From Escherichia phage phiHAO2-2: 39,299 nucleotides of DNA. Each line of letters opens with the position of its first letter. The first letter of the stretch is position 1. Where the stretch lies: the sequence record PP079212.1; one strand, written 5' to 3'. Positions 32,408 through 35,602 of this stretch are shown here, in pieces. A model generated the notes under the pieces. That model was not told the origin of the DNA. It was given only the letters and a program-made list of their open reading frames with translations, and did no database searches. The position numbers were made by a program, and so were the translations under genes.

Positions 32408-35400
32408 ATGTCCACGATTACACAATTCCCTTCAGGAAACACTCAGTACAGGATTGAGTTCGACTACCTAGCCAGAACGTTTGTTGTTGTTACGCTGGTG
32501 AATAGCTCTAACCCTACCCTGAACCGTGTACTGGAAGTTGGTCGAGATTATCGATTCCTTAACCCAACGATGATTGAGATGTTGGTTGACCAATCAGGTT
32601 TCGACATAGTTCGTATTCACCGTCAGACTGGAACTGACTTAGTGGTAGACTTCAGGAATGGCTCAGTGTTGACAGCTAGCGACCTGACCAATTCAGAGCT
32701 TCAGGCTATCCATATTGCAGAAGAAGGTCGAGACCAAACGGTTGACTTAGCGAAGGAATATGCCGATGCTGCTGGTAGCTCTGCTGGCAACGCTAAGGAT
32801 AGCGAGGACGAAGCACGACGAATCGCTGAGAGTATCAGGGAAGCTGGTAGACTTGGCTATATAACCCGTCGCTCCTTCGAGAAAGGCTACAACATTACAA
32901 CATGGAGCGAGGTACTGCTATGGGAAGAGGATGGTGATTATTATCGCTGGGATGGTACGCTTCCAAAGAACGTTCCTGCTGGTTCAACTCCTGAAACTTC
33001 CGGTGGGATTGGATTAGGTGCGTGGGTTAGTGTCGGTGATGCTGCTTTAAGAAGTCAGATTACAAATCCTGAAGGGGCAATACTCTACCCTGAATTACAT
33101 AGAGCACGCTGGCTTGATGAAAAAGATGTTCGTGGTTGGGGTGCTAAAGGGGATGGTGTCACTGATGATACAGCAGCGTTAGCGAGAGCATTAAACGACA
33201 CACCGGTTGGACAAAAGCTTAATGGCAATGGGAAGACATATAAGGTCACATCCCTGCCTGACATTAGTCGCTTCATCAACACTCGTTTCGTTTATGAGCG
33301 CATTCCCGGACAACCTCTTTATTATGTCTCTGAAGAATTTGTTCAGGGTGAGCTGTTCAAAATAACGGACACCCCTTATTACAATGCGTGGCCTCAGGAT
33401 AAAGCGTTCGTATATGAGAATGTGATATATGCACCTTACATGGGTAGCGATCGTCATGGTGTTAGTCGTCTGCATGTATCATGGGTTAAGTCTGGTGATG
33501 ATGGTCAAACATGGTCTACTCCAGAGTGGTTAACTGATCTGCATCCAGATTACCCTACAGTGAACTATCATTGTATGAGTATGGGTGTATGTCGCAACCG
33601 TCTGTTTGCCATGATTGAAACACGTACTTTAGCCAAGAACGCATTAACCAATTGTGCATTGTGGGATCGCCCCATGTCTCGTAGCCTGCATCTTACTGGC
33701 GGTATCACTAAAGCTGCAAATCAGCCATATGCAACAATACATGTACCAGACCACGGACTATTCGTGGGTGATTTTGTTAACTTCTCTAACTCTGCGGTAA
33801 CAGGTGTATCCGGCGATATGACCGTTGCAACCGTAATAGATAAGGACAACTTCACGGTCCTTACACCAAACCAGCAGACTTCAGATTTGAATAACGCTGG
33901 AAAGAATTGGCACATGGGTACTTCTTTCCATAAGTCTCCATGGCGTAAGACAGATCTTGGTCTAATCCCTCGTGTCACAGAGGTGCATAGCTTTGCTACT
34001 ATTGATAATAATGGCTTTGTTATGGGCTATCATCAAGGTGATGTAGCTCCACGAGAAGTTGGGCTTTTCTACTTCCCTGATGCTTTCAATAGCCCATCTA
34101 ATTATGTTCGTCGTCAGATACCATCTGAGTATGAACCAGATGCGGCAGAGCCGTGCATCAAGTACTATGACGGTGTATTATACCTTATCACTCGTGGCAC
34201 TCGTGGGGATAGACTAGGTAGCTCTTTGCATCGTAGTAGAGACATAGGTCAGACTTGGGAGTCACTGAGATTTCCACATAATGTTCATCATACTACATTA
34301 CCTTTTGCTAAAGTAGGGGATGACCTTATTATGTTTGGTTCAGAACGTGCAGAAAATGAATGGGAAGCAGGTGCACCAGATGATCGTTACAAGGCATCTT
34401 ATCCTCGCACCTTCTATGCACGCTTGAATGTAAACAATTGGAATGCAGATGATATTGAATGGGTTAACATCACTGACCAGATTTATCAGGGCGGAATAGT
34501 TAACTCAGGTGTAGGCGTTGGTTCGGTAGTTGTGAAGGATAATTACATCTACTACATGTTTGGTGGAGAGGACCATTTTAACCCATGGACATATGGAGAT
34601 AACTCAGCGAAGGATCCATTCAAATCAAATGGTCATCCCTCAGATTTGTATTGCTACAAAATGAAGATTGGCCCAGACAATCGTGTTTCTAGGGATTTCA
34701 GGTATGGTGCTGTACCTAACAGAGCTGTTCCAGTGTTTTTTGATACGAATGGGATTCGCACTGTTCCTGCGCCAATGGAATTTACAGGGGATTTGGGTTT
34801 AGGTCATGTGACCATTAGAGCCAGCACCAGTAGTAACATTCGCTCTGAAGTTTTAATGGAAGGTGAATATGGGTTTATCGGGAAATCTATACCGACTGAT
34901 AACCCGGCAGGGCAGCGCCTCATATTTTGCGGGGGTGAAGGCACCAGTTCAACGACTGGCGCACAGATTACGCTTTATGGTGTAAATAACACCGACTCAA
35001 AGCGAATAGTTTACAATGGTGCTGAGCATCTATTCCAAAGTGCTGATGTTAAGCCTTATAACGATAACGTCACTGCGCTTGGCGGACCTAGCAACCGTTT
35101 CACCACTGCATACCTCGGAAGTAACCCTATTGTTACTTCTAACGGGGAGAAGAAAACAGAGCCAGTAGTTTTTGATGATGCTTTCCTTGATGCTTGGGGT
35201 GACGTTCGCTACATCATGTACCAGTGGTTAGATGCTGTTCAACTGAAAGGCAATGATGCTCGTATTCACTTCGGGGTTATTGCTCAGCAAATTCGTGATG
35301 TATTCATTGCACATGGTCTGATGGACGAAAACAGTACGAATTGTCGTTATGCTGTTCTGTGCTATGACAAGTATCCACGGATGACCGATACGGTATTTTC

Positions 35401-35602
35401 GCACAATGAAATCATTGAACACATTGACGAGGAGGGTAATGTCACCACTACGGAAGAACCTGTATACACCGAGGTGGTTATTCACGAAGAAGGTGAGGAG
35501 TGGGGTGTTCGGCCTGACGGAATTTTCTTTGCTGAAGCCGCTTATCAGAGAAGAAAACTGGAAAGAATCGAAGCCAGACTTTCTGCTCTTGAACAGAAGT
35601 AA
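32408..35602 (+). CDS. Tail spike: endosialidase (endo-N-acetylneuraminidase) with gp17-like N-terminal anchor and C-terminal intramolecular chaperone domain
   Basis: 1064 aa, the length I recall for K1F endosialidase. N-terminal ~110 aa resemble the T7 gp17 particle-binding domain. The central region has lower GC by eye. C-terminal ~150 aa resemble the auto-cleaved chaperone domain of endosialidases. Confidence 0.88.
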   Translation: MSTITQFPSGNTQYRIEFDYLARTFVVVTLVNSSNPTLNRVLEVGRDYRFLNPTMIEMLVDQSGFDIVRIHRQTGTDLVVDFRNGSVLTASDLTNSELQAIHIAEEGRDQTVDLAKEYADAAGSSAGNAKDSEDEARRIAESIREAGRLGYITRRSFEKGYNITTWSEVLLWEEDGDYYRWDGTLPKNVPAGSTPETSGGIGLGAWVSVGDAALRSQITNPEGAILYPELHRARWLDEKDVRGWGAKGDGVTDDTAALARALNDTPVGQKLNGNGKTYKVTSLPDISRFINTRFVYERIPGQPLYYVSEEFVQGELFKITDTPYYNAWPQDKAFVYENVIYAPYMGSDRHGVSRLHVSWVKSGDDGQTWSTPEWLTDLHPDYPTVNYHCMSMGVCRNRLFAMIETRTLAKNALTNCALWDRPMSRSLHLTGGITKAANQPYATIHVPDHGLFVGDFVNFSNSAVTGVSGDMTVATVIDKDNFTVLTPNQQTSDLNNAGKNWHMGTSFHKSPWRKTDLGLIPRVTEVHSFATIDNNGFVMGYHQGDVAPREVGLFYFPDAFNSPSNYVRRQIPSEYEPDAAEPCIKYYDGVLYLITRGTRGDRLGSSLHRSRDIGQTWESLRFPHNVHHTTLPFAKVGDDLIMFGSERAENEWEAGAPDDRYKASYPRTFYARLNVNNWNADDIEWVNITDQIYQGGIVNSGVGVGSVVVKDNYIYYMFGGEDHFNPWTYGDNSAKDPFKSNGHPSDLYCYKMKIGPDNRVSRDFRYGAVPNRAVPVFFDTNGIRTVPAPMEFTGDLGLGHVTIRASTSSNIRSEVLMEGEYGFIGKSIPTDNPAGQRLIFCGGEGTSSTTGAQITLYGVNNTDSKRIVYNGAEHLFQSADVKPYNDNVTALGGPSNRFTTAYLGSNPIVTSNGEKKTEPVVFDDAFLDAWGDVRYIMYQWLDAVQLKGNDARIHFGVIAQQIRDVFIAHGLMDENSTNCRYAVLCYDKYPRMTDTVFSHNEIIEHIDEEGNVTTTEEPVYTEVVIHEEGEEWGVRPDGIFFAEAAYQRRKLERIEARLSALEQK

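Follow-up and report, generated by a model that had tools for sequence, protein, structure and literature searches.

The tail spike of phage K1F, the endosialidase endoNF, carries a C-terminal domain that helps the chains to trimerise, after which a Ser-Lys dyad cuts it off; in this dyad Lys916 is the general base for Ser911, the attacker of the adjacent scissile bond, and a hydrogen bond between Thr910 and Asn912 kinks the chain (PMC3828593). In pb1 of phage T5, Arg1250 of a neighbouring subunit lies between Asp1239 and Thr1263 and generates the oxyanion hole, and correct folding of the triple-beta-helix must therefore precede cleavage (PMC4690869). Deep mutational scanning of the K1F protein found the chaperone domain to be mostly intolerant of substitution except in its peripheral beta-strand extensions and identified R866-D994 as a critical, conserved contact between stalk and chaperone; the same paper gives H350, R549, E581, R596 and R647 as key endosialidase residues (PMC12632334). 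The domain, its structure, and its Ser-Lys mechanism have all been published already, as has the way it has spread to other phages and eukaryotic MYRF. The locus described here adds no new biology to them, being almost identical to a tail-spike maturation module that ranks among the best characterised in phages.

The gene 17 tail spike and its surroundings

We analysed the whole 39,299-nucleotide stretch of Escherichia phage phiHAO2-2 (PP079212.1; hereafter the window), which is identified by sequence comparison as a K1F-like Kayfunavirus genome, its first 25 kb showing 95-97.5% identity with the same phage group that gene 17 matches. The predicted product of gene 17 (Table 1) shares 97.46% amino acid identity with K1F endoNF at equal length, with 27 substitutions and no indels, and its DNA is 97.7% identical to that of phage K1F and 99.8% identical to that of phage phiHAO1-1. 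Four Pfam families (PF12218, PF12217, PF12195, and PF12219) matched far above threshold, and residues 245-910 matched the mature K1F endosialidase chains in the PDB (1v0e, 3gvl, and others). None of the 27 substitutions touches the five key endosialidase residues listed above, and one of them, S580A, adjoins E581. Taken together, these matches identify the gene 17 product as a K1F-type phage endosialidase.

Table 1. Gene 17 of phiHAO2-2, its domains, the residues of the cleavage site, and the predicted maturation products (nucleotide positions are those of the window)
Feature	Residues	Position	Strand	Mass (kDa)	Basis
Gene 17, endosialidase (endo-N-acetylneuraminidase) tail spike precursor		32408..35602	+		ORF list; 1064 aa + stop
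N-terminal T7-tail-fibre-type particle-attachment domain	10-115	32435..32752	+		Pfam PF03906, E 1.3e-15
Tail-spike N domain	155-211				Pfam PF18668
Catalytic part (N-terminal extension + six-bladed beta-propeller)	246-754	33143..34669	+		PF12218, PF12217
Endosialidase N-terminal extension	246-312				Pfam PF12218
Beta-propeller	313-754				Pfam PF12217, E 4.3e-221
Beta-barrel inserted in catalytic part	424-506	33677-33925	+		Pfam PF12195
Stalk	757-910	34676..35137	+		Pfam PF12219, E 2.3e-79
Asp886 codon (GAT), partner of folding-sensor Arg	886	35063..35065	+		K1F identity; T5 pb1 Asp1239 equivalent
Arg897 codon (CGT), folding-sensor/oxyanion-stabilising, from neighbouring subunit	897	35096..35098	+		K1F identity; T5 pb1 Arg1250 equivalent
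Predicted scissile bond Thr910-Ser911 (ACT TCT), Ser911 = nucleophile	910-911	35135..35140	+		AM084414 mat_peptide, PMC3828593, PMC4690869
C-terminal intramolecular chaperone domain (154 residues)	911-1064	35138..35599	+		PDB 3gw6, PF13884, PHROG 1171
Lys916 codon (AAA), general base of Ser-Lys dyad	916	35153..35155	+		Role from PMC3828593; identical in K1F
Predicted precursor	1-1064			119.1
Predicted mature spike	1-910			101.3
Predicted released domain	911-1064			17.9

The protein also matched PDB 9vvr_A ('Tail spike protein', 843 aa; E 7.3e-181 overall) over its residues 1-265 (window 32408-33200) and again over the end of the stalk and the chaperone domain (window 35040-35400), with the catalytic part unmatched. 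This pattern illustrates a common N-terminal adaptor with swapped enzymatic cores, and 9vvr_A is equal in length to the spike of Kayfunavirus AN24P4, which is described below.

Scans of positions 35000-36000 returned no sigma-70 promoter-like site and a single intrinsic terminator-like site (35797-35815, inside gene 17.5), which is no more than shuffled sequences give, and no promoter or terminator signal in this interval was tied to the boundary of the chaperone domain. A small hairpin (GGGTC-ACGGAC-GACCC, 35701-35716) stands 20 nt upstream of the start of gene 17.5 (ATG at 35736, preceded by GGAGG), and it is kept in AN24P4 despite a 16-nt indel just upstream (~35640-35655). Further downstream, the homologue of gene 18.5 (36292-36741) encodes a 149-aa Rz-like protein, named 'putative endopeptidase' in the K1F record, and an ORF nested in it in another frame, ending at 36667, corresponds to the Rz1-like gene 18.7 of K1F, which is the usual embedded spanin arrangement. 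Because the two ends of the window (1-600 and 38700-39299) share no direct repeat by exact match or blastn, the 39,299-bp sequence either does not have the redundant ends that a T7-like genome would be expected to carry or is trimmed or permuted relative to K1F (39.7 kb).

The C-terminal chaperone domain

The C-terminus of the gene 17 protein reads ...RIEARLSALEQK, and the stop codon occupies 35600-35602. A sequence-only reading of this DNA had proposed that the last ~150 residues resemble the self-cleaving chaperone domain of endosialidases and had suggested an alignment to peptidase S74 profiles as a check, and the comparisons bear the proposal out. Specifically, the last 275 residues (790-1064) align without gaps over 275/275 residues of PDB 3gw6, at ~97% identity (phmmer E 2.3e-184); this entry comprises the endoNF stalk and C-terminal intramolecular chaperone domain with Ala in place of Ser911. 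Pfam Peptidase_S74 (PF13884, 'chaperone of endosialidase') matched residues 914-971 at 37.8 bits (E 2.4e-9, profile positions 4-58 of 58), above its gathering score of 22, and PHROG 1171 (tail spike C-terminus) matched the domain with an E value of 2.3e-64. Its position is also colinear with 3gw6, at the extreme C-terminus, directly after the PF12219 stalk and followed by the stop. Such resemblance is far beyond chance and identifies the last 154 residues as a K1F-type C-terminal intramolecular chaperone (Peptidase S74) domain. That the fold is the same as in 3gw6 can be taken as effectively certain, because the ~97% identity extends over all 275 residues of that structure with no gaps.

Within the domain, 150 of the 154 residues are identical to K1F (97.4%), and the four substitutions (R915K, H934R, V1003I, and T1006I) avoid every mechanistic residue. 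R915K adjoins the general base, Lys916, and V1003I and T1006I lie, as we infer, past D994 and ahead of the conserved helix region at the C-terminus, close to the beta-strand extensions reported by the scan to tolerate mutation. Both partners of the stalk-chaperone contact, R866 and D994, are present. At the codon level, the domain differs from K1F by seven synonymous and four non-synonymous changes, an excess that is consistent with purifying selection.

Predicted cleavage site, alternatives and proposed maturation

The N-terminal boundary of the domain carries a Ser-Lys dyad with S-x4-K spacing in the context ...AYLGSNPIVT-S911-NGEKK916-TEPVVFDD..., and Asp886, Arg897, Thr910, Ser911, Asn912, and Lys916 are all as in K1F. 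Asp886, Arg897, and Thr910 were equated with Asp1239, Arg1250, and Thr1263 of T5 pb1 by their constant offset from the serine. The sequence-only reading had counted from the C-terminus to place the K1F cleavage serine at residue 911; its terminal sequence quotes and its count were correct (153 residues after Ser911, 154 with it), and the serine is indeed Ser911 (TCT, nt 35138-35140), with the role described for endoNF (PMC3828593). It had, however, drawn the cut after this serine, between PIVTS and NGEKK, which would give a homologous domain but leave Ser911 on the mature spike. One observation points in that direction, namely that the C-terminal fragment of Dictyostelium MrfA began one residue past the serine by mass spectrometry, which its authors attributed to exopeptidase trimming (PMC3828593). 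Three independent K1F lines contradict it: the endoNF cut is described as lying directly on the N-terminal side of S911 (PMC3828593), the GenBank record (AM084414) has mat_peptide gp17* running to residue 910 and gp17-CTD from 911, and the crystallised mature endoNF chains stop at the residue aligned to 910. T5 pb1 is moreover cut at Thr1263-Ser1264, and the same is reported for K1F (PMC4690869). A cut after Ser911 is thus very improbable. The position adopted here, between PIVT and SNGEKK, rests on the two papers (as secondary statements), the mat_peptide annotation and the C-termini of the crystallised chains, and a cut N-terminal of Ser911 means that this residue would leave with the chaperone. 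Correspondingly, the range first proposed for the domain (35141-35602, Asn912 through the stop, 153 residues) starts one residue (3 nt) late, as the domain starts at 35138; the one-residue shift leaves the chaperone-domain interpretation unaffected.

When the 154 residues of the domain were used as a tblastn query, 291 phage records were returned; among them are endosialidases, K5 lyase, and further spikes and fibres, from phages of Escherichia, Klebsiella, Salmonella, Serratia, Aeromonas, and other hosts. In an alignment of 11 homologues, the most distant at 27% identity and all extended upstream by 50 residues, Thr910 and Lys916 were invariant (11/11), as was a core consisting of A951, R952, H954, G956, Q960, G970, C985, D987, G1029, and R1035. 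Ser911 was kept in 10 of the 11, with Cys in the remaining one, and Asp886 was kept in 10 of these diverged homologues; Arg897 was also kept in 10, the exception being K5 lyase, where an Arg lies one alignment column away. Position 915, by contrast with the invariant ones, was variable (L, K, R, or C). In Serratia phage vB_SmaA_3M (NC_048736.1; L008 148-150), a Cys stands at the position aligned to Ser911 (...NSTIST-C-DAERK...), and Thr(-1), Asp(+1), and the Lys are retained; the self-cleaving site may exist here in a Cys-Lys form, or the domain may not cleave.

The variability at position 915 bears on a second alternative, in which the domain is present in phiHAO2-2 but has lost self-cleavage, for example through R915K or H934R, and stays on the virion spike. 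Two of the four substitutions do fall towards the N-terminal end of the domain, yet nothing positive speaks for such a loss, whereas the dyad, sensor, and kink residues are all unchanged, residue 915 varies freely among functional homologues, and phage isolate phiHAO1-1 carries a domain that is 100% identical; we consider this loss highly improbable. Finally, an antisense ORF (35228..35623, 131 aa) and a plus-frame ORF (35406..35639, 77 aa) exist mechanically, but that the signal in 35141-35602 comes from either of them is a negligible prospect, as neither matches a PHROG at E <= 0.01 and both were rejected as genes on this ground, the frame of gene 17 shares 97% identity with a protein of known crystal structure, and the annotated K1F genes 16-19 are all on the same strand and include no such ORFs.

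The gene 17 domain is therefore best read as a K1F-type self-cleaving chaperone, and it is predicted, with very high confidence, to be cut at Thr910-Ser911 with release of an 18-kDa domain. Folding assistance and cleavage in phiHAO2-2 are expected from the 97.4% domain identity to K1F and the retention of all mechanistic residues. If maturation follows that of K1F endoNF, three 119-kDa precursor chains would join through the chaperone domain, which would guide the triple-beta-helix stalk immediately before it into its fold, and only with this stalk correctly folded would a neighbouring chain place its Arg897 between Asp886 and Thr910 to form the oxyanion hole. The hydrogen bond between Thr910 and Asn912 would kink the chain, Lys916 would deprotonate Ser911, and Ser911 would then attack the Thr910-Ser911 peptide bond, such that the 18-kDa domain (starting SNGEKK) would be released and the 101-kDa mature spike (ending ...SNPIVT) would stay in the virion. 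For annotation, this means that gene 17 needs two mature-peptide features, namely the spike (1 or 2 to 910) and the chaperone (911-1064), as in AM084414. Where the spike is to be expressed as a polysialic-acid reagent or an anti-capsule enzyme, the C-terminal domain must be kept for folding, and a 101-kDa product should be expected.

Possible tail-spike exchange and relation to known systems

Two further phages place related chaperone sequences in other settings. Kayfunavirus AN24P4 (OZ035739.1) encodes a different spike of 843 aa (ORF 764..3295) with a K5-lyase-type chaperone domain, and right after the stop of this spike lies an orphan fragment (3296-3520) that encodes the last ~70 residues of a K1F-type chaperone domain. 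The fragment has ~97% DNA identity with the window from nt ~35391 (~35391-35602), and the similarity runs on into the intergenic region that both genomes share. The fragment resembles a scar left when one tail-spike cassette replaced another through a crossover within the chaperone domain. Escherichia phage UE-S5a (PP175015.1), an N4-like phage of 73.8 kb (Schitoviridae, Gamaleyavirus), encodes a 1215-aa endosialidase (L011 318-3965) whose chaperone domain is 98.1% identical to that in the window, followed by a K5 lyase spike, which indicates that the endosialidase module has moved recently between unrelated phage families. It is possible, though we hold the idea only tentatively and think it rather unlikely, that the chaperone coding sequence together with the 3' intergenic region serves as the homology arm on the downstream side when Kayfunavirus genomes exchange tail-spike cassettes, and that crossovers can occur within the domain. 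This reading bears on genome evolution and not on the function of the domain in phiHAO2-2.

Among known systems, phiHAO1-1 is closer to the present locus than K1F is (C-terminal domain 100% identical, gene 99.8% identical at the nucleotide level). With K1F, the likeness covers both the protein (1064 aa, the positions of Ser911 and Lys916, and the stalk and catalytic domains upstream) and the genome (Kayfunavirus type, gene order 16-17-17.5-18). T5 pb1 (PDB 4uw8), the GA-1 neck appendage (PDB 3gud), K5 lyase, and the 63D sialidase have in common with it the C-terminal position of the domain, the T-S-[DN]-x3-K motif, the AR-H-G...Q core, and a C-terminal coiled-coil-like helix, but they show 25-54% identity, are joined to receptor-binding or enzymatic domains of unrelated kinds, and vary in the length of the central hairpin ('tentacle'). 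The ICA domain of eukaryotic MYRF/MrfA resembles it, by description, in the Ser-Lys dyad and in self-cleavage triggered by trimerisation, whereas these proteins are membrane-bound transcription factors of the host cell and have Pro, not Thr, before the serine (PMC3828593).
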